From contig OX597824.1 of assembly GCA_951406725.2 (NCBI GenBank), forward strand, positions 55,862,001 to 55,926,000: 64,000 bases of DNA, written 5' to 3'. Under the pieces are notes generated by a model, which was given only the letters and a program-made list of their open reading frames with translations, was not told the origin of the DNA and ran no database searches. Source of the stretch: Octopus vulgaris. Lineage: Eukaryota. Shown in pieces: positions 4,038-59,293 of this stretch. The translations under genes and the position numbers were made by a program. Each line of letters begins with the position of its first letter. Position 1 is the stretch's first letter.

Positions 4038-5585
4038 CTAGCATTATGACCCGTCGTTGCCGGGTCTTAGTGCTAGTGCATGTATATATGTGTATATATA
4101 GGTGTACATATTACATGTACATCTATATATATATACATCTACACATAAAATACGAAATACAAAGTTATATCTTGATATCGCTAGTGATAACAATACTCAA
4201 AATATATAACAGACTGGAATTGTTAGCCCATCTCTTGCAATTTCAATCAATTGTATCTTGTCCTCCCTCTTGTATAGAAGTGTGGCTACAATCCAGCCTA
4301 CCTCTACTTCTGGGGGGACATTTTTAATTTTTATCCAGGACGTCCTACGTCCCAGATATAAAGGTAAAAGTAAAATATTTCCACTTTGCAAGTTTCGAGT
4401 CGAGTACTCCCTTGCATGCTCCGTTGACTCGAACCTTGCTTCTATTGTGGCGAATTTACCGCCTCTGGTTAGATATCTTTCATAGTGGCACCAAGATACT
4501 TTTCGATGGTGCTTTCCTCCAGGTGTTCAAATCTTGTTTTTTCTCTACATTGTATACTTTATAGACAATAGTGTTTACTTTAATTTAATTTTTTATTTCG
4601 TTTGGTGGTGTTATCCTAGATTCACCGTCTTTGTCGGTGATCAATCCGAAATAGGTTTGTATTTCTTCCATTTTAAGTTTAATGAGTTCACACCCGCCAA
4701 TGGCTGCAGTGAAATTCATTTTTTAGACTTTCTTCTATCGAAGGGATTCTAACAAAAATGCTTCCATATAAACGGTGAAAATATTGTCAATTTCCCCAAA
4801 CAGGGACACAATTCAATTTTTAAACAATAACCAAAGCTCCTTCTCCCAAAGGGGGAGGGTTACAGTGTACAATTATTTAACAAATGCAACACAACAACGT
4901 TTCCCTTACGGGGAAACAAAGCACGTGATAACAATAGTTAAACAGTAATAATAATAACAACAAACCTTACGGTGAATTAAAAAGCAGTACGCAGTTGATT
5001 TAATTTAATTTATTCCCATTCATGTGAAACCACTTATTCATTTTCTAGTCATTAATGTAATTTTATACCTATTACTATTTTTACTTTTGTTATGTTACAA
5101 TTATATTATACTTTAGTTTGATTTTAATTATTACTTACTACAATAATTCAATTATTATTATCTCTAATTTTTATTGTTACAGTGAAAGTATTTGACATAA
5201 AATAGAGAAATGTTTTTGTTTCACTTTTAACACGTAATACTGAAATAGTGGAGAAGATATGATATTGCTATGGGCTCGCCCTAGGCAAGAAGTTGAACAT
5301 TTTTTTTGCCCATGAAACTACATGGACCCTAAGTAAGACATGTGTAAAATTTGAATGAAATTGGGTGTGTAGTTCTCAAGTTTTAGGGAATCGTAGTGGA
5401 GAAGATATGATATTGCTGTGGGCTCGCCCGAGGCAAAAAGTTAAAACATTTTTATGCCGATGACACTCCCCAGACCCTAAGTAAGGCATGTGTAAAATTT
5501 GAATGAAATTGGTTGAGTAGTTCTCAAGTTTTAGGGAAACACACAGACAGACAGACACACATTCTCAGTTTTATATATAGAGAGA
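4038..5585 (-). mobile_element. Non-autonomous Helitron carrying a decayed Gag/ORF1-like fragment
   Basis: On the minus strand it has a 5' TC(TC)TATATATAAAACTGAGAATG(TGTC)n start and a 3' hairpin GACCCGGCAACGACGGGTC followed by CTAG. It is inserted between A and T with no TSD. Related copies are at 6380-9828 and 57223-59293. Confidence 0.8.
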
Positions 5586-6319: not shown

Positions 6320-7333
6320 GTGAAATTTAAGGAAAAGAAAAATTATATATGTATTTATATATATATATATATATACATACTAGCATTAAAAACCCGTCGT
6401 TGCCGGGTCATAGTGCTAGTGCATGTATATATGTGTACATATTACATGTACATCTATATATATATATATATACATCTACACATAGAATACAAAATACAAA
6501 GTTATATCTTGATATCGCTAGTGATAACAATACTCAAAATATATAACAGACTGGAATTGTTAGCCCGTCTCTTGTAATTTCGATCAATTGTATCTTGTCC
6601 TCCCTCTTGTATAGAAGTGTGGCTACAATCCAGCCTACCTCTACTTCTGGGGGGAAGGGGCATTTAAAATTTTTTTCCGGAACGTCCTACGTCCCAGATA
6701 TAAAGATAAAAATAAAATATTTCCACTTTGCAAGTTCGAGTCGAGTACTCCCTTGCACGCTCCATTGACTCGAACCTTGCTTCTATTGTGGCGAATTTAC
6801 CGCCTCTGATTAGATATCTTTCATACTGGCACCAAGACTCTTTTCGAAGGTGTTTTCCTCCAGGTGTTCAAATCTTGTTTTTTCTCTACATTGTATACTT
6901 TATAGACAATAGTCTTTTCTTTAATTTAATTTTTTATTATCCATCTGGACTATTCCATTTCTGCACGCTAATTTTATTTTTAATTTATTCCCATTCATGT
7001 GAAACCACTTATTCAAGTTCAAGTCATTGATGCGATTTTATACCAATTGCTATTTTTACTTTTGTTATGTTACGATTATATTACTTTAGTTTGATTTTAA
7101 TTATTACTTACTACATATATTAGAAATATTAAATTTCTAAATATCTCATAGAGATATGTACGGTGGTGGGGCGATAGAATGGTTGTATACTATCAATTTA
7201 ATGTGACAGTAGGGGATTATACCGCCGCTGTTTAGCCCTAGGAAGCATCGACGCCTCCTGATGGCTTCGACACATTTTGTTTTCCTGTGTCCTTATATAT
7301 TTATGAAGAGGAGACAAATACCCCCAGCAGCCA

Positions 7334-7400
7334 GGCCTACATCTAGAGACACGCATGTTTCAGGATCTTTGTCCATCATTGGTCTAGAGTAGCAGAAGCC
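7334..7400 (-). ncRNA. Type I hammerhead ribozyme, probably inactivated (core CCAATGA, G5A)
   Basis: Minus strand GGCTTCTGCTAC-TCTAGA-CCAATGA-TGGA..TCCT-GAAAC-ATGCGT-GTC-TCTAGA-TGTAGGCC. Confidence 0.7.
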
Positions 7401-7539
7401 CGCCAACTGCAGATGAATCTTTATTATAGGCACAATGGCCCGAATGGAGAGGGGACATTACAATACAGGACATGGGGTACATATAACAAAAATACAAAAA
7501 GGATGGTATGACAATGAAATATTTACAATTACAATTGTG

Positions 7540-8891
7540 CTATCCGGGGCGTTCATCCGTAATATAATCGAGTAACTCCTCCTGTTCTATAACACCTGGC
7601 AAACTGTCATATCGAATGTATTGCATTACGCCTACAGCTATATTTGAATACACATTTATTAATTTCATTACTGTCTCTCTTTCTACAATTGCCGCCTTTA
7701 TTTGGTCATCGAATTTCTTCGGGTTCAGTTTTACTCTAGTTAGATTTTTCATATTCGCTAATTTCTTCTCAATTTCTTTGTCCTTTTTGTACAACATTAT
7801 AGCTTTGAGATTTCTTCCTTTTGGCCTTCGTCCTTCCTTACATATTTTCAGTTGTTCTTCCATTTTTCTTTCCCATTCTTTCTCTTCCTCCCACATTGAA
7901 ACTTCACTCACTTTCGTTTCTGTATCTCTCTCATCGTGCGTTTGATCCTCTATCTCGTCGGTAGACTTCTTTTTAGCTTTTTTCTTTTTTGTGCTTGCGT
8001 TCTCTTTCTATCCTCTTTTACTTCTGTTTTTTCCTTTTCTTTCTCCTTCACCAACTCATCACCACTTTCTACATTATCTGTAGTTACAATTTCCTCTTCC
8101 ACTTGCAATTCCACATTCGCCTTTTGTAACTCCTCTGTCAAAGCCTCCAGTGTTATCGTCTTCTCTTGTACTTCTCTTAGCGGACACATATCCTTCATGT
8201 GGCCTCTAATTTTACATTTGTAAGACACTGGGGGTCTCCCTTCCACCACGACTCTGAGACGTGTCTCGTCGGGGAACACCAACTCCTCAGGGATGTTATA
8301 CAGGTCTGGCATGGTTATGTGAAGCAAAGCCTGCACCGCATAACCCCACCACTTTATTTCTTTCGACTTTTCTACCTTCAGTATGTCGACGCTCTCTTTG
8401 CAGTTGAATATTATTGCCGCTACAATTCTTTCCGTGTCTAGTTCCGGTGAAATTTTACTAATCCGTATTCTCACTGCTCTTTTTCCACAATGGCTAGGTA
8501 GTAACACCCATTTTTCGGATTTCAATATTGTTGTGGCGTTTCTCTTCGCTTCGTCTTCGTTTTCAAAACGAGCGTCTACTGTCGCGTATTTTCTACCTCT
8601 ATTGTAGAAGGTAGTTTTTCCTTTAATTTCCTGTAGACACTTCTCGATTTCTTCCACCTCTGCTATTTCTATTCTCTTCGAAACCACACTCCACGTTCTG
8701 TACGTTATAATTCTCTTCTCAGCTTCTTTCACTTCGTCTTCAGGCGGTGTGTCCCTCAGACAATCACCTTCCTTCTTGAAGCTGTCGTAGTACTTCCTCA
8801 AACTCTACTTCTCGATAACTATTTCTTCCAACTGTAGTTCGCTCACAGCCAGGCCTTTGCCTGCTGCTCCCGCATAAGTTTGGGCTTGTAT
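7540..8891 (-). pseudogene. Gag/ORF1p-like nucleic-acid-binding protein (possible RRM-like region, CCHC knuckle, Lys/Glu-rich linker, conserved C-terminal domain); one stop and one frameshift
   Basis: ORFs 7950-8801 and 7540-7911 join via a -1 shift near 7975. The upstream extension reads TYAGAAG past an in-frame TAG. The knuckle RPPV[S]YKCKIRGHMKDMCP has its first Cys mutated. It is clearly homologous to 15287-16707 (YATVDARF/YATVDVRF, WVLLPSHCGK/WILLPSYCGK). Confidence 0.8.
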
Positions 8892-9435
8892 ACCCAACAA
8901 AAACTTCAACAATTCACCACGCCGTAACACCTTCCAACAACAAAATCCAACTCACAACCGCAATACACAATAACCGTAATACAAAATAACCGACACAAAC
9001 ACTGCCCGCCAGCTGCAGATATCTGTCCTGACTTCGTAAATATATATATCTAATTTTTGGTGAAGTTTATTCACTGATTACCAAAATCAGAAATATTAAG
9101 TTTCTAAATATCTCATAGAGTTATGTACGGTGGTGGGGTGATAGAATGGTTGTATACTGTCAATTTAACGTGACAGTAGGGGATTACACCGCCGCTGTTT
9201 AGCCCTAGGAAGCATCGATGCCTCCTATGCTTCCTAGGGCTAAACAGCAGCGGTGTAATCCCCTACTGTCATGTTAAATTGACAGTATACAACCATTCTA
9301 TCGCCCCACCACCATACATAACTCTATGAGATATTTAGAAACTTAATATTTCTGATTTTGGTAATCAGTAAATAAACTTCACCGAAAATTAGATATATAT
9401 ATTTACGAAGTCGGGACAGATATCTGCAGCTGCCA

Positions 9436-9502
9436 GGCTTCTGCTACTCTAGACCGATGATGGACAAAGATCCTGAAACATGCGTGTCTCTAGATGCAGG
9501 CC
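9436..9502 (+). ncRNA. Type I hammerhead ribozyme (U4C variant, core CCGATGA)
   Basis: Stem I GGC..CTGC..TCTAGA / TCTAGA.GCAGGCC, stem II GGA/TCC, GAAAC, short stem III ACA-TGCG-TGT. Predicted cleavage after GTC at 9488. Confidence 0.75.
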
Positions 9503-10393
9503 TGGCTGCTGGGGGTATTTGTCACCCCTTCGTAAATATATAAGGACACAGGAAAAAAATGTGTCAAAGCCATCAGGAGGCGTCGATGCTTCCTAAACAG
9601 TGGCGGTGTAATCCCCTACTGTCATGTTAAATTGACAGTATACAACCATTCTTTTACTACATTTAATTCAATTGTTATTATTTTATTGTTAAGGTGAAAG
9701 TATCTGACATAAAATAGAGAAATATTTTTGTTTCACTTTTAACACGTGGAGAATAGTGGAGAAGATATGATATTGCTAGGGAAACACACAGACAGACACA
9801 CATTCTCAGTTTTATATATATATAAAGATTACTAATAATAATAATATTGGTGATGATTGAAAGCATGAACTGTGCAGGCAAGTTTATGAGAGGAAAGTTT
9901 ATGAAGGGAAGCTAGGAGACAGGTATATATAGCCAAGACAAGTATATATAACCAAGACAGGTATAGACTGATAGTCAAGGGACAGGTATATATAGCCAAG
10001 GGAGAAGCAGAAAAGAAGTTTGCCAATGTTCAGTGATGTGAGGACCAAAGAACTGAAGTATTTCAGATTTAAAGACAGTGTGTGAGAGAAAATTGTGTCC
10101 GCATGGATAATGGTGCAATTGCGTTTAATGATTCTGCAAAGAAAGAGGCTTGGAGATGCCATTATGAAAGACTGCTGAACATGGAAAATGAATGGGAAGA
10201 AGAGAGCCTGCCAAATGTTGGCCAGCTACCCGAATTGACAGTACCCTGGTAGATAAAGCAATTAAGGATATGAAGGCAAGGAAAACCCCCAGCCCATCAG
10301 GAATCACCACTGAGATACTTAAAATATCTGATGGTGAAGGAGATGATCTAGTCAGTGGTATTGGAAATCAGATAGTTCACAAAAGAGTCATAC

Positions 10394-10626
10394 CTATTTC
10401 TTTACTACCCACAAGGGGCTAAACACAGAGGGGATAAACAAGAACAGACAGACGGATTAAGTCAATTACATCGACCCCAGTGCGTAACTGGTATTTAATT
10501 TATCGACCCTGAAAGGATGAAAGGCAAAGTCGACCTCGGCGGAATTTGAACCCAGAACATAACGGCAGAAGAAATACGGCTACGCATTTCGGCCGGCGTG
10601 CTAACGTTTCTGCCAGTTAGCTGCCT
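10394..10626 (-). mobile_element. tRNA-derived SINE inserted in the RTE LINE
   Basis: Minus-strand A box TGGCAGAAACGTTAG and B box GGGTTCAAATTCC. Same family as 60349-60560. The LINE sequence resumes on both sides. Confidence 0.8.
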
Positions 10627-11258
10627 TGACTGATGTAGCAGCACCATAGTCAACTGCTACAAAGGTAAAGGTGATGCTTTAGAGAGAAATAACTACAGGG
10701 GTATCAAATTTCTGGATCAGATGATGAAAGTCATGGAGAGCATCATAGCTCTACTAATTAGGGAGAGAGTTAGCCTAGATGAGATGCAGTTTGGTTTTGT
10801 GCCAAGTAGAAGCACCACTGATACTATATTTTTGGTAAGGCAACTGCAAGAGAAATACCTAGCCAAAGATAAATGTCTGTACCTGGCTTTTGTTGACTTG
10901 GAGAAAGCCTTTGACAGGATCTCCCAATACTTTATCTGGTGGTCAATGTGAAAACTAGGGATAGACAAATAGTTGGTGAGAGCTGTACAAGCCCTGTACA
11001 GGGATGGTGTCAGTAAGATGAGGGTTGGCAACAAGTATAGTGAAGAATTCCAGGTAAAAGTAGAGTTTCACCAAGGATCAGTCCTAAGCCCCCTCTTATT
11101 CATCATAGTCCTCCAGGCAATAACAGAGGAATTCAAGATAGGCTTGCCCCTGGGGTCTCTATGTTGATGACCTTGCTCTAAAAGCTGAGTCACTACCAGA
11201 ACTAGAGATGAAGTTTTAGATGTAAAAGCAAGATCTAGAATCAAAGGGCCTTAGAGTC

Positions 11259-11829
11259 TATAATGAAGATGGCAATGAAGTTGGGTAAATAAAAAAATCG
11301 AAAATGTGAAAATGGATATACAACGTGAGATGAAACTGAAGTGTTCTCCATTATAAAATAAAATGATTGCCATACATGAAATAAATTAATATAACAGGTT
11401 ACAACAAAGATGTATAAGAGACTTCGTGTTTAGGCTGGATTATTGATCTTGTAGACAAAGTTGATGTACTGATTGGTGCTGTGTAGAAGCAGCAGTTGGT
11501 CTGCTGGTTGTGTAGTGATCATATGGCAACGATGTAGGCAGGTGTCTGGTGAAGGTGAAAGCGGAGACAAGCTGGTGTCAGATATGAGTGGCATGACCTA
11601 GAGCAGTCACGAACTGCCATTCTTATAGTGATCAGTGGGCTCCTAGAGCTGGTGATTAATTTCCCCGTGTAAGGAAAAACAAACTATTACACCAACATGA
11701 CTGGATGGCTGGAAACCAATCAATACAAACAACAAAATGCTTGTGGGGCCAACATCCAGGTATTTACGCCTAAACAACCACGATGAAAACATCTCACAGA
11801 TAACGACAGTGTAAATTACTTTTGCTACA
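11259..11829. mobile_element. Solo LTR (Gypsy-type) inserted in the RTE RT region
   Basis: 4-bp TSD AGTC (11255-11258 and 11830-11833). The ends TATAATGAAG...TTTTGCTACA are a degenerate TG..CA with imperfect inverted termini. The RTE frame (GLRV-NLAKTK) rejoins on removal. Confidence 0.65.
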
Positions 11830-14116
11830 AGTCAATCTAGCAAAAACCAAAGTCCTAGTAAGAAGGAAGGTAGACAAATCACAAACCCCTTCAGGTAGAT
11901 GGCCTGCTCAATTTGTAGAAAAGGTGTAGATAGAAATTCCATATGTACCTAGTGTAAGCTATGGCACATAAGAGGTGTAGCAATATTAAAATAAGGTTAA
12001 TCGAGAAGATAGCTTTTGTGTGTGGCAGATGCACAGGGGCAACAAACACCGAAGATATACAGAAAACAGATTCCATTACATGCCAGGGGGAGAAGCTAGA
12101 AGTAATTGTTAGCTTCCACTACCTAGGTGATCAAGTCTATGGTGGGGGTGGATGCTCTGAGAGTGTAGCTGCTAGAATAAGAATAGCCTGGGTGAAGTTC
12201 AGAAAGCTCCTATCTCTGCTGGTAACAAAAGGCCTCTCACTCAGAGTAGAAGGTAGACTGTATGGTGCATGTGTGCGAACAGCCATGCTACACAGCAGTG
12301 AAACATGGACCATGACTGTTGAGAACATGCGTAGGCTTGAAAGAAATGAAGCTAGTATGGTCTGCTGGATGTGTAATGTCACTGTGCGCCCATGACAGAG
12401 TGTAAGCACCCTGAGAGAAAAGTTGGATGTAAGAAGCATCAAATGTGGTGTCCAAGAGAGATGACTGTGCTGGTATGGCCATGTGCTGTGTATGGAGGAA
12501 GACATCTGTGTAAAGAAGTGTCACACCCTAACAGTGGAAGGAACTTGTGGAAGAGGCAGACCCAAGATGATATAGGTGGTGAAGTATGACCTTCGAACGT
12601 TAGGTCTCACAGAAGCATTGACAAGAGACAGAGACCTTTGGAGATATGCTGTGATTGAGAAGACCTGGCAAGTAAAGTAAGATCACAGCCATGGCCAATG
12701 CCAGTGTCGCATAACCAACCCATTTAAAAGTACCCTTGAATCATCAGGTGATACACTGTGCTTGAGAAAACCTATTGTGTCAAGTGAAATCATAGTCATA
12801 GCCAATGCCAGTGCCACCTGACTGGCTCCTGTGCCGGTGGCATGTAAAAGGCACCATCTGAACATGTTCAATGCTAGTGTCACCTGACTGGCTCCCGTAT
12901 CGGTGACATGTAAAAAGCGCCCACTACACTCTTGGAGTGGTTGGCGTTAGGAAAGACATCCAGCTGTAGAAACCTTGCCAGATCAGATTGGAACCTGGTG
13001 CAGCCTACTGGCTTGACAAGCTTCATTCAAACCATCCAACCCATGCCAGAATGGAAAACAGACGTAAAATGATGAGGATGATAATGATTATGATAATGAA
13101 GATGATATAATTTAATTTTGGTACTGTAAATTTTGGTGTTTTGCTAAAAAGGCATATGTACTATTTTCTCAAAGCTGAGAAAGTCTTCACAAATTGTTAC
13201 TCAGAGTTTCCATCAGACAATTGTAATAATACTGAATAATAAATCATGTCGATATATATAATACTAGCTTAAAAGCTGCTTATCAGGTGACTTTTAAGCT
13301 AGCTCCTGTGGAGAGCTCTTCATTAGGCTTTGCGCCCAACAATGACACTTCATGCATTGGGTACATAATAAATTTTATTAAACTTGAACAATATTTTTCA
13401 AGCAATGAACAATTTTCATCAAAACAATTTGATATAACTTGTCCACTTGGAACTTATTGCAAAACTGTATGATAAACAACAGTACTACCACCATCGCCAC
13501 TACATCTGCCATACACATATCATTCAGACTTCTGATGCCACCACCATCAATACCTTTGACTTCACCGCCTTCCCCCTCTACCACCATCACCACTGTCTTT
13601 CACATCACTTACTCTCACTGTCATCCCTGACTGTCTCAGCTATCACCACCACCACCACCACCATTATCACCGCCACCTCTGCCTCTATCATAACTACAGC
13701 TTATACTATTACTATCACCCCATTACCATCGTTCAGTATATTAGTTCAGTATGTTGGTTCAGTGTTCGGTCTCTCTTTCTGTCACTCTTATTATTACTCC
13801 TACTGCTACTATCAACACTACTACTTTTAATAAAAACATCATCAACTCTCTTAAATTGATGCTGAATTTTGGGGAAACTGTATTCAATTAAAGTGTATTT
13901 TATGTGTGTGTGTGTGTGTGTGTGTATATGTATATATGTACACACAAACACACACACACACACACATACACATGCTGTATTAAAGAAAGCAAATAATAAA
14001 GCAAAAATGATAGTGTTCAGTAGTTGGTTCAGTAAGCTGGGCACAGGAATTTCTGTCCAGGAAAGTTGTACATCATCACTTTCTTTCTCTTATATATCCA
14101 CACACACACACACACA

Positions 14117-14178
<62 letters not shown>

Positions 14179-14567
14179 ACTCCCATTTCCACCATCAACA
14201 CTAATACTTTTAATAAAATGTCATCAATTCTTCCTAAATTTCTTTGTCTCTCTCTCCCTCTATTTTTCTTTCTCTCTCTCTCTCTCTCTCCCTCTGTCTT
14301 CACCACCGTCCTAACTTTCTTTATGCCTCCTATAACTCTCATCCCAACATGAGGAAGTGTTATTAAATAGCGAGAGAGGTGGGGAGAGTAAAGTGTGACA
14401 CACTGACAACAGAAATTTTGTTGCTGATGTTATTATTATTATTATTTATTCAAGTCACTGCCTGGAATTGAACTTGGAATCTTGGGGTTAGTAGCCTGTA
14501 GGCAATTATAGTGTGTATTTTAGGGCTTATAAACCTAATATTTTTGTATCCTTCCTTAAAAAAAAAA

Positions 14568-14710
14568 CACCCTAGAAATGAGAACCCAGGGTTGGGTTCA
14601 AAATTCCAGAAGGTCACCTGATGAAAGCTGGAGAGTAAATCAGCGGAAACGTTGTGGTAACAACAAACAAAATGAGGACACATATCCATCCAATGTAAAT
14701 AATGTAAATA
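14568..14710 (+). mobile_element. Penelope-like pseudo-LTR fragment with minimal hammerhead (14615-14657)
   Basis: CAC-CTGATGA-AAGCTG..CAGCG-GAAAC-GTT-GTG has the palindromic AACGTT stem III typical of Penelope-like minimal hammerheads. An AT-rich tail runs into (TA)n. Confidence 0.65.
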
Positions 14711-14921
14711 TATATAAGCAATAATAAATCTCTGAACAAGGTATAGACAGTAACTGCACGACAATGTGAGGTATATTTGCCATCTCAATATGGCTAACCA
14801 CTAAGGGTGGATGTTACTGTAGCTTGTAGCCCCAGGAGAACATCTCCAGCTGGCTATAGGCACACTTTCTGTGCCCTATCGGTATTTGCAAAGGGAGGTC
14901 ATCCTTCCCTCATCAGCCTAA

Positions 14922-14980
14922 GTGATACACATGGACTGCAGTTTCTGGGTATTGACCCATCATCAGCGCACGACAATCAC
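14922..14980 (-). ncRNA. Type I hammerhead ribozyme with canonical core
   Basis: GTGAT..GTGCG-CTGATGA-TGGG-TCAATA-CCCA-GAAAC-TGCA-GTC-CATGTGT-ATCAC. Stem III is the palindrome ACTGCAGT. Proximal stem I is partly decayed. Confidence 0.8.
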
Positions 14981-15286
14981 CGGTTTTTGTATTTCTTTAT
15001 TTGGCACTAAGGCCACAACACAGAGGGGACACTACAAGGACAGACACAACACTACAGTGGGGACAATAAATATAAAACAGATGAAAATGAATATTATATA
15101 ATAATGGAAAATGAAATGGCTGCATGGGCCCCACTCCACATACAGTACCATTGGAGTGTTTTTACACTCTGTTATTACAGTCTTATTTTATCTGATTTTT
15201 CCTCTTTTTTTCCGTTCATTAAATGTCATTTTTTCTTCAAAAATACTCTTCCTTTCTCTTTTTTTTAAAACTTTTTTTTTTTCCTT

Positions 15287-16707
15287 TTAACGCTTCATAT
15301 ACTGCTCCAGCTCTCTCAGTTCGATTACTGGTGGCAGCTCATTGAACTCCACTATCGTTCCACCAGGGTCGATTCCATCACCGCACCTGTCTCTAAGTCT
15401 TTCATAAACCACCTTATCGGCGACCAAACCTTTCACTCTCTCAGAGTACATGTCTCTGGGCATTTTCACCCTTACGATGTTTTTAAACTTCACAATTTCC
15501 TTTTCCACTTCCTTGTTTTTTGAATAGGTAAAAAAACTCCATTGTTTCTTCCATCCTCTAGGCTTTCTCCTTTCTTCCTCTCCCAATATATGCTCCTCTG
15601 TACTCTTCCTGAGGCTGGAACAATCTTCTTCTCTATCTCCACTATTAACAGTTTCTCCATCTCACCCTCTTGTAGCTGAGTCTCTGAAACTTCTGCCAAA
15701 TCACATGTCATCCTCAACCTTGTTTCCTCCTTCTCTGGCTCATTGTCACACAACTTCTTAATTATTTTTTCACTTCCCTTCTTCGCCTTACTTTTGTTAT
15801 CTTTCTTTCTCGTTACGTCTTCCTTTTCCACCTCTTCTTTCTTCTTTTTCTGGTCAGTCGGTGGCGGGCTTGCCCTAACGCTCCTCCTTCTTTTTCTTTC
15901 CACTGTTATGAAACCCTCTTCCGCTGCTTTTTCACTACTCTTGACCGTCTCTGCCTGTTCGATATTTTCTTGATTTTCTCTCTGTTTCTGTGGGCATCTC
16001 GCCTTCATGTGTCCCTTTTCGCCACATTCAAAACACACCGGCGGACTGCCCTCCACCTTCATTCTCAGTGAGAAACCGCCAGGCAACACTATCTCCTCAG
16101 TTATTCTATTGAGGTCTTCTACTGTTGCCTGGATTGTTAATTCCAATCCATAGCCCCAGTAGTCCTGCATATATGTTCTGGTGGCCTTTAGTATTCTGGC
16201 CCCGTCTTTCATGTTATACATAATGGCTGTCATTAGCCATTCCTCCTCCAGCTCGGGGGGCACTTGGCCGACCTGAACTTTCGCCACAAGTTTTCCGCAA
16301 TATGATGGCAAAAGAATCCATTCTTCCGAACGAATTGCCTCCGTCGCATATTTTAATGCTTCCTCCTCCGATCTGAATCGCACATCCACAGTGGCATACC
16401 TTCTGCTTCTCGTTCTGAAGGTTATAAACTTTTTAATGCCTTCCAACACTTTTTCAATTTCTTGTACTGCTGCTATTTCTATTTTCTTTGTGGCGACCTT
16501 CATGGTCTTGTAGGTCACCGTTTTCTTTAGTATGCTGTTCGTCAGCTCTTCGGTTGGCATTAATTTTATCGTTTCACCCTCCTTCTTTATCAGCTTCTCG
16601 CAATCTTTTATTTTCTTGTCGTCGACTAATATTCCATAAGTTCTTTCCTCTGCTCCTCTCCCAGTTGCGGCTGCATTGCTGTGGCCGCCTGCTGGTGACT
16701 TCTCCAT
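15287..16707 (-). pseudogene. Gag/ORF1p-like protein with intact CX2CX4HX4C zinc knuckle; single frameshift before the C-terminal domain
   Basis: ATG at 16707 (MEKSPAGG) and knuckle SPPVCFECGEKGHMKARCP. The C-terminal ORF 15287-15586 (LPPVIELRELEQYM) is homologous to 7540-7911 (LPGVIEQEELLDYI). Confidence 0.85.
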
Positions 16708-17101
16708 TTTCCTCGATGGGAAAATATAACAACACAAAAATTAAACAATATTAACACCGATAACGACGACCAGCAAAAATCAACAATTAATTACTCACAT
16801 TAATGCTCCGTCTTCAACAACTCGAAAAAAATCACTGGTTTTCGATGAAAGGAGTCCCAATGCAAATATTTATATCCTTTTTCCAGTAACTTTATGTCAC
16901 TGATCTTGAAAAAATGTATACAAGCAATAATAAATCTCTGAACGAGGTATAGGCAGTAACTGCACAACAATGTGAGGTATATTTGCCATCTATCTATCTA
17001 TCTATATATATATATATATATATAAAAGGCAGAGCTCCAGCATGGCCATAGTCAATTGATTGAAACAAGTAAAAGAATAAAAGAATATTTATATATATAT
17101 T

Positions 17102-21435: not shown

Positions 21436-22447
21436 TTACCTCTGCCTTAGCGAAGGCAGAGGTATTGTTTTCAGTCATGTTTGTTTGTTTGTTTGTCTAT
21501 GGACAAGATATCCCAATAACTACAGGATGGATTTGGATGAAACTTTCAGGGATGTTTGGCCTCATAACTGGTATGAACTGATGAGATTTGGTTCCAGACA
21601 AGGATTCTGGATTATTTGTTATATCTACTTTACTTTATATGAAGTATTGCAATCTTACATTCACTTTCAAGTCTTTCTCTGATTTTCTCCCTTGAAAGCA
21701 TGCTCATAGTTTCCATGTAAGTTACGGCAGCATTGCTGTTTCCAAAGTTTTATTTTCGTTTCTCTATTATTAATTTTACTCGCATCTCTATCTTAGTAGA
21801 AATTGATAGATAAAGAAATCAAACAACATAAACAAATGGCAGCAAAGCTGTTCAGAAATTGAATAACACTAATAAATTTAATTTGTCCATGACAATTTTT
21901 AGTTTTACTAATTTTGAATATATTGCTCCTGTTTAAAACCTTTTACCTACTTGACAATTGCATTTCTAGCTCTGCCTTGAAGGAAGTTTTACTTCTTGGA
22001 CTCACATTTTTGTGTGCAATGATGTTGCTAAACCTTTGTTAACAGCACCGTATGCTGGTCCTTTCCATTTTCTTTCAGACACGGATACATTTTTCACTAT
22101 AGATCTTAATGGTCGTAAAGACACTATATCAGTGGACAGACTAAAAAAGGCCATCATAGAGAAAACTGCCCCTGTTCCCACTGCAGATGACACACACACA
22201 GCATTACAAACATGGCCTGCATACCCACCTTCACATCCATGATTGCCATTGGGATTGATCAGATAGTGGATAAGGATTCTGGATTATTTTTCTGGAGAGT
22301 GGTCAGGTTCATTTTTAGTAATCTCGTTTGTCAGAGCAGTCGAGTTTATTTCAAATATTTGCATTTTAAAAATCATCTCCAGCTAATCGTTGAGAGGACA
22401 TTGGTGTTGCCTTGGTGGAGGTTTGCACTCTCAGAGTGTTCTTGTTA
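21436..22447 (+). mobile_element. Non-autonomous Helentron/HINE-like element containing a Gypsy integrase fragment
   Basis: 5' TTACCTCTGCCTTAGCGAAGGCAGAGGTATTGTTTTC hairpin plus (GTTT)n, and 3' GGAGGTTTGCACTCTCAGAGTG hairpin. Internal peptide APYAGPF...ISVDRLKKA. Confidence 0.55.
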
Positions 22448-24907
22448 TTATCAATTTAATTTTTGGAGTATAAAATATTCTTTCCTAAATTTGCAAAAGA
22501 AAGTTTTAATCTAGTTGGCTTAAAATTATATTTTCCTTCATACTAGGTATTAGATAAAAATGTAAATAGTGTCACAATATTCAATATCTGAGGATCTCTC
22601 CTGGTACCCAAAAATATGTAACATTGTGAAAACTATAGCTCAATGATGAAATTTCCTCTTCATAAAATTATTTCACTTCCAGACAATGCTGACCCATAAG
22701 ATAATTCAAGATCCACATCTGGGATGTTGTTGCTGTTGCACTTGTAACTCCAACATGTAAACCTTTTGGATGTTGCTGCTGTTGCTTTTGCTGTATTTAA
22801 ACATCTGCAATGCTACTGCTGTTGCTACTTATAAACATCTGGTGTGGTTGCTGTTGCTGCCACACATAAGCATCTAGGATGGTGGTGGTGGTGCTGCTGC
22901 TGTTACTGCTATACATAAAAATCTTAGGCTACATCCAAAAGAAAGCCACCCAATTGATTGTCAAAGATACACTGATGAACATATTACAATATCTGGTCCA
23001 GACATAATGTGCCCTCTTTCTATCTATTCTACCACTACTACAATGGTTTCAGATTTTCTGCTGCACGCCACATCCATCAAAACTCACCTCATACATCCTT
23101 TCACTACACTGAAGATGTCTTTCTCCAGAACACCTAATCCTTTTGCCCTTAACATCAGTTCTCTGGAATACCCTTTCCACCCACATTTTCCTGCCAAACA
23201 TTCAAATAGAAACCACATCAACCAATCTTGGAGGGGCTGCAAAGATCACCATGACAGTCTATCCTTCAAAGTAATCCATAAAACATGTTATATCTAACAA
23301 TTCACATTTCTTACACTTTTAATGACTGAAGGTTGAGATGGATAAATAATGTTGGTTTGAGTAAGGCTATGTGTACAGATAAAGGAAGAATGAGGAAACC
23401 AGAATTAAGTGCAACAATTTATTCAACCCAATAAAAAGTGTTAAAATTGCAAAGCTGTAGAGATACATCTTGAAGAAATGGTCAGAATATATACACAATG
23501 GTTTAACAAGTAGATGATAGATAATGATGATGTAGGCTGGATAGAACAGGAAAAACACATATGAGACATACATTCTGTTGGAGGACAGGAACAAACGTAT
23601 GCATGAAAGGTTAACTGAGGCTGCCTGTAGAATAACTGCTTTCTACTGAAGATCTGAACTCTGCTATGTCAACCCACCTCACTGAAGAAAATAACAGGAA
23701 GACTCCCCTTATATAGCTGAGAGCAGTGTGCTTGGCTGGGCTGTCATGGGATGGGGCAGACAGCCTGCATAAAGTTAGATGGACATGGCCATCACATGAT
23801 GAGCAAAATGTGGGTACTTAAAGGTAAAGAGCCAAACTATGAACATGCTTGCTACAACTACCCCCTGAAAAGAAGAATGACCATGAGGAAAAGATATGAA
23901 AAAGAAAAAAAAAACTGTAGCATGAAGGAAAAATGTACAACAAATCATAAGAACAAAAATGTACAAAAGGGAAATACAATAAAAAAAGGAGAAAAAAGCA
24001 TGAGCAAAACAGTGTAAATAAGCATGTACAATACATCAATTGTTATGAAAAAATAGCCAGAAGTTTGTAAAAACAGATGCAAACCATTGCAAAAAATGTT
24101 CTGACAGTTCAAGGTGCAAGTCTTTAGAAGGGTCTGAAGAAGCGAGTCCAGTGATGTGAAAATGAGAAAAGTTTATGATCTGTAGATAGTCCATGAAATG
24201 CTGTAAGTAATGAGCTGGTACAAAGGAATGATTATGAGTAAGCTGGACTTGCAGTGGTGGAAATGGTGGTAAACAATAAACTCTGATAAAGAAGGATATT
24301 GAAATCCGTTGATTGCCGTAGCTGCTGTGAAAAAGGATGTTGAATGGCAACACAAATGTAACGTGAAGCTCCCATGGGTTAATTAGTTGAAATAAAAAGC
24401 ATTGTAAGCAGAAGAAAAAAAAATATGATGAAATCGATGGTGAAGAGAATGCTGAGATCCAAGATGACCATGGATAAGCATTTGTCAAGTTTGAAATGGC
24501 GTGAATGGATGCAGTGCTGGGTGAAGATGACAAACGAAGACCCCCAAAAGTGGCAGTAGTGATAGCTGTCATGACAAGGTGTCAGATTAAACATGGATGC
24601 AAAGTTTAAGTGCCATAGAGAAAACATTGCCTCAAGAAAAATGTTATGGTGAGAGAAAACAGCGCAAACTCTTTGGGTCAAATCCAATGCCAAGAATTGG
24701 TTATTATTTTAAGCTGTATTGGGCACTATCTCATCAGGGTTTTTTGTTTTTATAAAATGAAGGTTACATCTTTCTTGAAGGGATTCAATTAAATGTCCAA
24801 TCTCTTTACCCAGGTGCAATATGTTTTCATACAGTTTCTATTTATTCAGTCTCCTTCACAAGATATGGACTGACCAAAAGCTGTAGTAAAAGATATTTAC
24901 CCTGGAT

Positions 24908-30367: not shown

Positions 30368-37670
<7,303 letters not shown>

Positions 37671-57222: not shown

Positions 57223-59293
57223 TCTCTATATATATAAAACTGAGAATGTGTGTGTGTCTGTCAGTCTGTGTGTTTCCCTAAAACTTGAGAACTACACAAC
57301 CAATTCCATTCAAATTTTACACATGCCTTACTTAGGGTCCATGTTTCATGGGCAAAAAAAATGTTCAACTTCTTGCCTAGAGCGAGCCCATAGCAATATC
57401 ATATCTTCTCCACTATTTCAGTATTACGTGTTAAAAGTGGAACAAAAACATCTCTCTATTTTATGTCAGATATTTTCACTTTAACAATAAAAAATAGAGA
57501 TAATAATAACAATTGAATTATATGTAGTAAGTAATAATTAAAATCAAACTAAAGTATGATATAATAATTAAATCGTAACATTGCATCAATGACTTGAACT
57601 TGAATCAGTGGTTTCCCATGAATGGGAATAAATTAAAAATAAAATTTAAGTGCAGAAATAGAATAGTCCAGATGGAGGTGTGCACGTCTTTTACATTAGA
57701 TTATTTGCTAATTAGCTAGCATTAAGTATCTATATGAAGTTTGGCTGTATGAAAGATGCTTCTACTGATTACCGCTGTTGGTTTATTTCTGATCCATAAA
57801 GGCCTATAGCTTCAACATAGTACTGCTTTTTTGTTTACCGTAAGGTTTGTTGTTATTATTATTTCTGTTTAACTATTGTTATCACTTTTGTTGGTTCCTC
57901 GTAAGGGAAGCATTGTTGTGTTGCATTTGTTAAATAATTGTAAACCGTAACCCTCCCCCTTTGGGAGAAGGAGCTTTGGTTATTGTTTAAAAATTGAATT
58001 GTGTCCCTGTTTGGGGAAATTGACAATATTTTCACCGTTTACACGGAAGCATTTTTGTTAGAATGATATCTTCTCCACTATTTCAGTATTACGTGTTAAA
58101 AGTGAAACAAAAACATTTCTCTATTTTATGTCAAATACTTTCACTGTAACAATAAAAATTAGAGATAATAATAATTGAATTATTGTAGTAAGTAATAATT
58201 AAAATCAAACTAAAGTATAATATAATCGTAACATAACAAAAGTAAAAATAGTAATAGGTATAAAATTACATTAATGACTAGAAAATGAATAAGTGGTTTC
58301 ACATGAATGGGAATAAATTAAATTAAATCAACTGCGTACTGCTTTTTAATTCACCGTAAGGTTTGTTGTTATTATTATTACTGTTTAACTATTGTTATCA
58401 CGTGCTTTGTTTCCCCGTAAGGGAAACGTTGTTGTGTTGCATTTGTTAAATAATTGTACACTGTAACCCTCCCCTTTGGGAGAAGGAGCTTTGGTTATTG
58501 TTTAAAAATTGAATTGTGTCCCTGTTTGGGGAAATTGACAATATTTTCACCGTTTATATGGAAGCATTTTTGTTAGAATGATAGAAGAAAGTCCAAAAAT
58601 GAATTTCGCTGCAGCCGTTGGTGGGCAGCGAACTCATTAAAATTAAAATGGAAGAAATACAAACCTATTTCGGATTGATCACCGACAAAGACGGTGAATC
58701 TAGGATAACACCACCAAACGAAATAAAAAATAAAACTAAAGAAAAGACTATTGCCTATAAAGTATACAATGTAGAGAAAAAAAACGATTTGAACACCTGG
58801 AGGAAAGCACCATAAAAAAGTATCTTGGTGTGACTATTAAAGATATCAAGTATCTAACCAGAGGCGGTAAATTCGCCACAATAGAAGCAAGGTTCAAGTC
58901 AATGGAGCATGCAAGGGAGTACTCGACTTGAACCTTGGAAAGTGGAAATATTTTATTTTTACCTTTATATCTGGGGCGCAGGACGTACCGGATAAAAGTT
59001 TAAAATGCCCCCCCCCCCCCCGAAGTAGAGGTAGGCTGGATTGTAGCCACACTTCTATACAAGAGGGAGGACAAGATACAATTGATTGAAATTACAAGAG
59101 ACGGGCTAACAATTCCAGTCTGTTATATATTTTGAGTATTGTTATCACTAGCGATATCAAGATATAACTTTGTATTTTGTATTTTATGCGTAGATGTATA
59201 TATATAGATGTACATGTAATATGTACACATATATATACACATATATACATGCACTAGCACTAAGACCCGGCAACGACGGGTCTTTAATGCTAG
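57223..59293 (+). mobile_element. Non-autonomous Helitron with internal duplication and captured Gag/ORF1-like fragment (58580-59120)
   Basis: 5' A|TCTCTATATATATAAAACTGAGAATG and 3' hairpin GACCCGGCAACGACGGGTC...CTAG|T. Reverse complement of the 4038-5585 family. Confidence 0.85.

Follow-up and report, generated by a model that had tools for sequence, protein, structure and literature searches.

Introduction

HAL1, HeT-A and Ag-Sponge, which belong to the L1, Jockey and CR1 clades of long interspersed nuclear elements (LINEs), are ORF1-only and non-autonomous. They encode only ORF1p, the product of the first open reading frame (ORF), keep the 3' end of a partner LINE and need ORF2p in trans (PMC5786205, PMC5753468); telomeric elements of Drosophila form head-to-tail arrays and long-lived ORF1-only lineages (PMC13534243). 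Two elements, A and B, in a 64,000-nt stretch of the Octopus vulgaris genome (contig OX597824.1 of assembly GCA_951406725.2, forward-strand positions 55,862,001 to 55,926,000; hereafter the window) are ORF1-only non-autonomous LINEs which resemble these systems in the same respects, the need for ORF2p being presumed, and which follow a surprising targeting rule: with good probability, they are nested insertions at the TATA-promoter start sites of other repeats. A and B differ from HAL1 and HeT-A in having an ORF1 of the type with two RNA recognition motifs (RRMs) and a CCHC knuckle (ZCCHC3-like), in the absence of poly(A) at most 3' ends, and in being dispersed, not telomeric, at TATA-promoter starts of other repeats.

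Members of the Tx1 clade have preferred targets, namely Tx1D for Tx1, U2 for Keno, Mariner-N4 for Tx1-Mar, and long terminal repeat (LTR) or Harbinger elements for others (PMC4494074). The octopus lineage, too, has an APE-RT partner of the L1 group (RT, reverse transcriptase), inserts into other repeats and does so in tandem, and its transcription from the flanking target is suggested, as it is for that clade (PMC4494074). Each of those families, however, prefers one sequence family, whereas the targets of the octopus lineage form at least 17 groups unrelated to one another, with only a TATA box at a fixed distance in common. Position-specific rather than sequence-specific insertion near transcription complexes is a further likeness to TRE5-A and TRE3 of Dictyostelium, Ty3, DGLT-A and Tf1; Ty3 inserts 1-4 bp from RNA polymerase III (Pol III) start sites (PMC5006619, PMC6101501), and TRE5-A ORF1p binds TFIIIB subunits in vitro (PMC5006619). 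In these accounts TRE, Ty3 and DGLT-A target Pol III genes and Tf1 is an LTR element aimed at RNA polymerase II (Pol II) promoter regions. The octopus lineage, unlike them, is an animal LINE inserted in sense at a presumed Pol II start, which would double as its promoter source.

The repeats in which A and B lie, designated units uA and uB, are like metazoan non-LTR retrozymes and the hammerheads of Penelope pseudo-LTRs (pLTRs) in being non-coding, 350-360 nt long and provided with a type I hammerhead, and in their partial tandem and inverted arrangements (PMC7229834; 10.64898/2026.07.22.740005; PMC8557442). They are peculiar in their minimal-type hammerheads, palindromic stem III and, in uA, a core that is mostly CCGAUGA (23/28), and they serve here as an insertion target from which the coding element is separate. 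A preliminary description of the window had treated ORF and unit together as a protein-coding retrozyme, a view that the target-site duplications, the empty sites and the distribution of the units, all given below, do not bear out. The literature search, with subscription papers, supplements, Repbase and Dfam outside its scope, returned nothing that describes this octopus family, nor any LINE that inserts at TATA start sites.

Structure of elements A and B

The two elements lie on the minus strand and share the architecture that had been described for them; the ORFs, periods, short repeats, AATAAA signals and hammerheads were all found again at their coordinates. Element A proper (7415-9003) consists of a short T/G-rich leader, ORF1, a 3' untranslated region and a conserved tail that terminates about 5 nt past AATAAA, with no poly(A). 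Its ORF1 (7540-8891, about 450 codons) encodes two RRM-like domains, a decayed CCHC knuckle, an acidic/basic linker and a C-terminal alpha/beta domain, and is broken in three ways: the ATG is lost, an in-frame stop lies near 8806, and the frame shifts near 7950-8007. Element B proper (14988-16829) represents a second subfamily, and its ORF1 (15287-16707, about 473 codons) has a single frameshift between 15490 and 15661. The CX2CX4HX4C knuckle reported for both proteins is intact in B, but its first Cys is lost in A.

A is flanked by a 17-nt direct duplication (5' copy 9004-9020, 3' copy 7398-7414) and B by one of 13 nt (16830-16842 and 14975-14987), with AATAAA 5-8 nt ahead of the 3' copy in both. 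The 5' copy of A is the presumed transcript start of unit uA, and the 3' part of the upstream uA unit (9021-9226) supplies a TATA-like box at 9041-9052, 26-28 nt upstream of the duplication. Similarly, the 3' end of the upstream uB unit (16843-16991) has TATAAAT at about 16868-16874, 30-32 nt upstream. Downstream lie the host units, uA at 7120-7414 with a minimal type I hammerhead (decayed core CCAAUGA at 7376-7382, GUC at 7348-7350) and uB at 14706-14987 with a canonical minimal hammerhead (core CUGAUGA at 14960-14966, GUC at 14934-14936).

The repeat periods of 1966-1967 nt in A (7101-7259 against 9067-9226) and 2206 nt in B (14706-14785 against 16912-16991) agree with the repeated-unit layout first given, but the uA array continues on the plus strand as an inverted arm at 9227-9652, which is not a direct repeat. 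This arm contains a hammerhead (core CCGAUGA at 9454-9460) and a unit-unit junction free of the ORF module (9362-9485). The whole uA array is in turn flanked by a 9-nt duplication within a Helitron-like repeat (left 7108-7116, right 9654-9662, plus strand). The terminal redundancy, formerly taken for a circular permutation, is that of an interrupted retrozyme array.

Comparison with other copies placed these observations on a family-wide scale. Searches with the two ORFs gave 14,343 and 13,170 first-look candidates, which are not copy numbers, and 150 of each were scored; the sample comprised 100 oriented ORF loci and 20 stretches of 10 kb. A 3' tail was detectable in 63 of the 100 oriented loci, and in 45 of these 63 the sequence just past AATAAA recurs just before the leader (score of at least 9), as against 34 of 600 mismatched pairs. 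With a permitted offset of at most 10 nt 40 loci were kept, from which three were set aside as tandem. In the remaining 37 the duplication is 9-23 nt long (median 16), and by similarity they fall into 17 target groups. The duplication is always the target's own sequence and varies by locus, so that the "short repeat" noted earlier is a target-site duplication. Some duplications are followed by extra leader-like pieces (L102), which fit transcription from a captured promoter.

Pre-insertion sites, in the form of module-free junctions, were found in the sampled DNA at 21 places for A and at 26 for B, and the empty site of A is also present in its own inverted arm (9362-9485, 94%). Since empty sites exist elsewhere and in this arm, the array predates the ORF element, which was added at a unit junction. 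The window also holds, at 22200-22480, an empty copy of the target of another module, L016 (84% across the join).

Position of insertions relative to TATA boxes

With one locus counted per target group, 8 of the 17 groups have an exact TATAWAW that begins 22-35 nt before the duplication, compared with 101 of 2062 background positions (4.9%, p 5e-7). When one mismatch is allowed the figures are 13 of 17 against 21.5% (p 2e-6). On the opposite strand the numbers fall to 0/17 and 4/17, respectively. A looser TATA pattern gave 12/17 in this position and 1-4/17 in eleven control windows, and no base consensus was seen at the insertion junction among the 17 groups. A distance of -35 to -22 is the textbook spacing between a TATA box and the Pol II start, and because of this spacing the start of the duplication falls where Pol II transcription is expected to begin.

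A SINE-like repeat (SINE, short interspersed nuclear element) that carries the elements' 3' tail and lies outside A and B (10395-10625, minus strand, identified by the tail match) served as a control. Several copies have duplications, and a TATA box occurs in 3 of 35 when exact, all within (TA)n, and in 8 of 35 at one mismatch, a few rows of this set overlapping; the ORF1 elements differ from it at Fisher p 0.003 and 0.0006, respectively. This repeat occurs in many loci as partial tandems of about 183 nt, its duplications often start with GGTAT, and it is a candidate SINE partner of the LINE lineage. It is presumed to be of tRNA origin; ARAGORN did not find a tRNA in it.

The targets are not confined to hammerhead units. 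Young arrays stand at the TATA site of a Helitron-like repeat in 8 of 20 large loci; Helitron-like and LTR-like are used here as presumptive labels. The Helitron-like repeat is abundant, has TC...hairpin...CTAG ends, and is present in the window at 4070-5560, 6501-7119 with 9654-9781, and 57380-59170. It bears a fragment of ORF1 directly behind its TATA box (4233-4478, 6715-6828, 58690-59099). One ORF1-only module (L216:1180-3100) is inserted about 15 nt into a SINE head, and Pol III starts are therefore possibly also hit. In another locus (L117:2330-2560) an ORF1-only and an autonomous element stand head to head on opposite strands, about 200 nt apart, each with its own TATA box.

The ORF1 protein

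The zf-CCHC domain passes the Pfam cut-off in B (E 1e-4) and is weaker in A (E 0.11). The predicted structure of an intact relative (predicted local distance difference test, pLDDT, 77) contains two RRM-like domains, a CCHC knuckle, a charged linker and a C-terminal alpha/beta domain. The RRM-like domains match SFPQ/NONO, IMP3 and Sxl in Foldseek (best Z in structure comparison 9.3 over 75 residues, root-mean-square deviation 2.0), and ESM Atlas places the protein with ZCCHC3-type RNA-binding clusters at 0.91. The C-terminal domain is modelled at pLDDT 84 with a best Z of 4.6, and Foldseek returned no match for it at E<=0.001. As the preliminary description had it, the RNA-binding protein is the element's own, whereas an RT has to come from elsewhere.

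The ratio of nonsynonymous to synonymous substitution rates (dN/dS) is 0.11-0.28 in all six dS bins for 51 distinct cores, selected for being stop-free and including one autonomous ORF1, which answers the expectation of a value below one. Fourteen young ORF1-only copies on several chromosomes are 99.9% identical (median, over 700 nt). Among the homologues looked up, nine of the ten that are named come from Octopus species and Argonauta. An annotated octopus protein, P0017, joins 111 aa of ORF1 to WD40 repeats and is either a gene-model artefact or an exaptation. In one array a single module (L127:6375-7739) differs from those next to it by dense A-to-G changes, a pattern that may reflect hyper-editing prior to reverse transcription; ADAR activity is strong in octopus.

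Probable autonomous partner elements

A search for zf-RVT yielded 25,802 candidates, many of them in frames that stay open for 1130-1148 aa. Some belong to 5.4-kb tandem arrays; in one place (L241-L243, G000:C2:73.04-73.07 Mb) five autonomous 5.4-kb elements follow head-to-tail, and the array ends at a hammerhead unit. In two full autonomous copies the profile of the A/B family matches ORF1 at E 1e-74 and 1e-56, with 33% identity to the B protein over 213 aa, and this ORF1 is followed by an ORF2 of 1132-1140 aa with APE (PF03372), RVT_1 (PF00078) and zf-RVT (PF13966) domains. Among solved structures ORF2 is closest to LINE-1 ORF2p (E 4e-66); R2 matches at E 4e-26. Judged by its APE-RT-zinc ORF2 sequence, the partner is a member of the L1 group, and from its ORF1 type and target preference we presume it to be of Tx1 type; none of the sequences that it matched carried a Tx1 label.

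The autonomous copy L242 stands behind the Helitron-like TATA site used by 8 young arrays, is followed by an ORF1-only module, and shares the tail: its 3' end is 86-91% identical to those of young ORF1-only modules over about 50 nt. Of eight autonomous stretches, three are matched by the tail profile at E<1e-4; its match to a second autonomous family is weak. ORF2-bearing copies also end exactly at the sites used by A and B (L085 in uA, L033 in uB), and three others (L243, L245, L248) stop where a third hammerhead unit begins; this unit likewise follows modules in L126 and L130. Common 3' ends and common sites suggest that the partner's ORF2p mobilises the ORF1-only RNAs. The octopus elements thus show the features by which ORF1-only LINEs are recognised, namely a single ORF homologous to the ORF1 of an autonomous LINE with no ORF2, a 3' end in common with the partner, and independent insertions with target-site duplications and a conserved ORF1.

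A quick midpoint-rooted tree, made without a clade test, groups the ORF1s of A and B with those of the young Y modules in one clade, starred in the tree, apart from the two autonomous ORF1s sampled, from which the ORF1-only clades stand at 28-36%. In the loci examined no full ORF2 was found behind an ORF1-only ORF, and there was one partial chimera (L222, 1 of 100 loci), in which an ORF1 of A/B type is joined to the C-terminal third of ORF2. In L125 an autonomous-like ORF1 is joined to an A-type tail. Exchange with autonomous elements occurs, as these two chimeras show, and a closer autonomous relative of A and B may exist outside the sample.

Integration and choice of site

In the mechanism proposed, A and B are non-autonomous ORF1-only members of an octopus L1/Tx1-type lineage that would integrate, in sense, where transcription from a TATA promoter begins, using target-primed reverse transcription and duplicating about +1 to +16. 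By analogy with other LINEs, the first nick would fall on the template strand near +1 and the second near +16, and the RNA used for priming reverse transcription would stop about 5 nt past AATAAA. The element, apparently promoterless, would be transcribed from the hijacked promoter, and APE-RT would be supplied in trans by autonomous relatives with the common 3' end. Retrozyme arrays, with a TATA promoter at each unit junction, would be one favoured target beside LTR-like, Helitron-like and other repeats, and repeated insertion at one site would give rise to mixed head-to-tail arrays.

How the site is found is a separate matter. ORF1p bound in cis might dock on TBP/TFIID or the open complex, by a speculative analogy with TRE5-A ORF1p and TFIIIB, and the retention of ORF1 after loss of ORF2 could then be due to this cis-acting targeting. 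Docking of ORF1p on the initiation machinery as the site finder is an idea that we hold tentatively, in nearly equal parts belief and doubt. A similarly guarded standing, just below an even balance, is given to the broader picture of an animal LINE lineage, partly autonomous and partly of long-lived ORF1-only kind, with genomic hits of the order of 10^4, that gave up its promoter and is tethered by ORF1p to +1 of any TATA promoter whatever the local sequence; retrozymes, LTRs and Helitron-like repeats would then be its promoter donors.

Another explanation, which concerns the targeting step only, is that the site is chosen by ORF2p or by the DNA itself, through open or bent promoter DNA or through an endonuclease that reads an AT-rich box about 28 nt away. 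Target choice in the Tx1 clade is credited mainly to the endonuclease (PMC4494074). The docking partner of ORF1p is itself conjectural, and the C-terminal domain of ORF1 has no informative fold match. Against such a choice stand the tail-sharing SINE, which has no ORF1p and shows duplications but no TATA bias, the lack of a sequence motif at the cut, the fixed insertion orientation, and the conservation of ORF1 in elements that lost ORF2. Selection of the site by ORF2p or DNA is rather doubtful, though a serious possibility.

Several points weigh against insertion at TATA-promoter starts as the general rule. The -35 to -22 window was chosen after inspection of the data, and four of the 17 target groups have no TATA box even at one mismatch. 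The 37 of 100 oriented loci with no tail fall outside the duplication test; the loci are top-ranked, near-full-length matches and not a random draw from the 13,000-14,000 candidates, with 5'-truncated copies outside the sample. Autonomous copies with a known 5' junction (n=4) have no exact TATA and three one-mismatch boxes, and three of six autonomous end pairs show a duplication. Empty sites were found for 21 of 40 loci, some being self-matches within arrays. The TATA boxes are taken as putative promoters from their sequence, and the use of the LINE's enzyme by the SINE is suggested by tail similarity.

If insertion at TATA-promoter starts is correct, it would make this an animal non-LTR element whose integration at Pol II core promoters is position-specific; in the literature searched, such targeting is described only for Pol III genes (TRE, Ty3, DGLT-A) or for the LTR element Tf1. 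It would also offer a testable answer to why ORF1-only LINEs retain ORF1, with the tail-sharing SINE without ORF1 as a built-in control. Moreover, the insertions would map active TATA promoters in octopus repeats, among them one at each retrozyme unit junction, which bears on the transcription of retrozymes.

Hammerhead units and their relation to the ORF element

Units uA and uB are distantly related, as first reported; their pairwise alignment covers 281 nt at 59% (E 1e-5). The type I hammerhead proposed behind each ORF is borne out by covariation: when 15 motifs, taken from the window and elsewhere, are aligned, 89% of cells are paired, all three helices are supported, compensatory changes occur in 8 of 13 pairs, and 0 of 500 shuffles reach as much; one misassigned pair (columns 18-67, unpaired in 14 of 15) is included in the count. 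Rfam at E<=10 did not detect the hammerhead in A and B, and an Rfam scan of the entire window was dominated by microsatellite matches. Single-strand folding did not single out the hammerhead (z -0.5, -0.35 and -1.8), nor did it give a stable structure for the elements' 3' tail (z 0.2 and -0.5). The motif scanner was used in a loosened form, the stricter first version having found none in 30 loci. A second CTGATGA word with a hairpin, lacking GAAA, lies at 14905-14915 on the minus strand, about 50 nt behind the hammerhead of B, and often reads TTGA or CGA in other copies.

Searches with the units returned 4,912 (uB) and 2,361 (uA) first-look candidates, of which 40 each were scored. The arrays sampled are mostly partial dimers, with module-free unit-unit junctions in 22 of 30 uB loci and 14 of 30 uA loci, and an ORF lies within 1.5 kb of the unit in only 2 of 29 (uB) and 7 of 29 (uA) top loci, the window's own excluded. 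On their own, the units have the structural features of a retrozyme, a type I hammerhead in a non-coding unit of 150-400 nt and tandem copies, and uA and uB are retrozyme-type repeats with predicted self-cleaving hammerheads. A and B taken whole do not fit this definition: they contain an ORF of 450-470 codons under purifying selection, the hammerhead is not constant in the mobile unit, and the duplications bound the ORF part only.

Under the original proposal the ORF and the hammerhead unit would form one self-cleaving, possibly circular retroelement of about 2 kb, mobilised by a Penelope-like RT. The expected constant linkage was not found, for among the 63 copies whose 3' end is detectable a unit follows the ORF in 23, a lower bound because a few divergent units were missed. 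It is true that the unit follows 18 of 25 tailed A-like copies, that the inverted arm at the 5' side of A corresponds to the Penelope-like pattern of PMC8557442, that young Penelope-like elements are present in the genome, and that the inserted element does sit between two potential cleavage sites of the array. However, the unit is present in only 1 of 16 B-like copies and in 4 of 22 others, and A-type ORFs occur in uA, in uB, in further hammerhead families or with no hammerhead unit, always with the target's own duplication. The mixed head-to-tail arrays of young subfamilies contain no hammerheads and have variable A-tracts at their junctions. The junction within the inverted arm is module-free, the core of A's own 3' hammerhead is decayed, and APE-RT elements occupy the same junctions. 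New insertions stop 0-10 nt past AATAAA with no hammerhead remnant, and because they end upstream of the hammerhead there is no sign that the element uses it.

No RT of the Penelope-like element (PLE) type lies inside A or B; PLE RTs near 3 of 20 large loci are unrelated or non-recurring, and no matching autonomous PLE was found in 60 sampled loci. A PLE ORF beside the array L127 was considered as a partner and rejected, since the 3' end of its family matches neither unit nor tail; one of 30 loci of this family has an ORF module. Thirty GIY-YIG loci had neither unit nor module. Instead of a PLE, APE-RT elements of L1/Tx1 type occupy the sites of A and B. The PLEs include a very young family (L141-L170; RT, Cys linker and GIY-YIG; about 98% amino acid identity, dozens of copies), in which a hammerhead scan found none, and a second GIY-YIG family with 781-aa open frames.

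A single ribozyme-processed replicon is thus very unlikely. The hammerhead-flanked repeat beside each element is a landing site and no part of the element, which lands where other repeats start transcription. The preliminary description had itself named, as signs against a coding retrozyme, relatives with an ORF2 and a majority of ORF copies free of the hammerhead unit, and this is largely what was observed, since ORF2-bearing relatives exist and most ORF copies have no detected unit. Passive carriage of the composite by the retrozyme's own machinery may nevertheless take place, and circles of about 2 kb may arise as a by-product. Four contig sets of unrecorded RNA status cover unit and ORF, in which a circle and a genomic tandem are indistinguishable; their joints are module-free in two runs and head-to-tail in one. 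More generally, hammerhead-flanked genomic ORFs can be nested insertions instead of ribozyme-bearing coding replicons.

It is still less probable, although both window ORFs are broken and the L222 and L125 chimeras show exchange with autonomous elements, that A and B arose as dead products of deletion in autonomous LINEs and reached abundant repeats by chance, given the depth of the ORF1-only clades, the low dN/dS, young copies on several chromosomes, each with its own duplication, an insertion position far from random, and the finding, in the 100 oriented loci and 20 stretches of 10 kb, of no autonomous elements with ORF1 more than 90% identical to each subfamily and heterogeneous breakpoints.

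Other features of the window

The earlier statement that the interval contains no RT applies to the elements themselves, but an unrelated RT fragment lies between A and B at 10634-10948 on the plus strand (RVT_1 E 7e-11, 28% identical to the partner ORF2). It belongs to a decayed LINE with RT fragments at 10080-12560 (plus strand), split by other insertions, which we take to be RTE-like. A 6.9-kb block rich in (AT)n microsatellite occupies 30806-37662, and further long (AT)n tracts lie at 39.7-43.2 kb.

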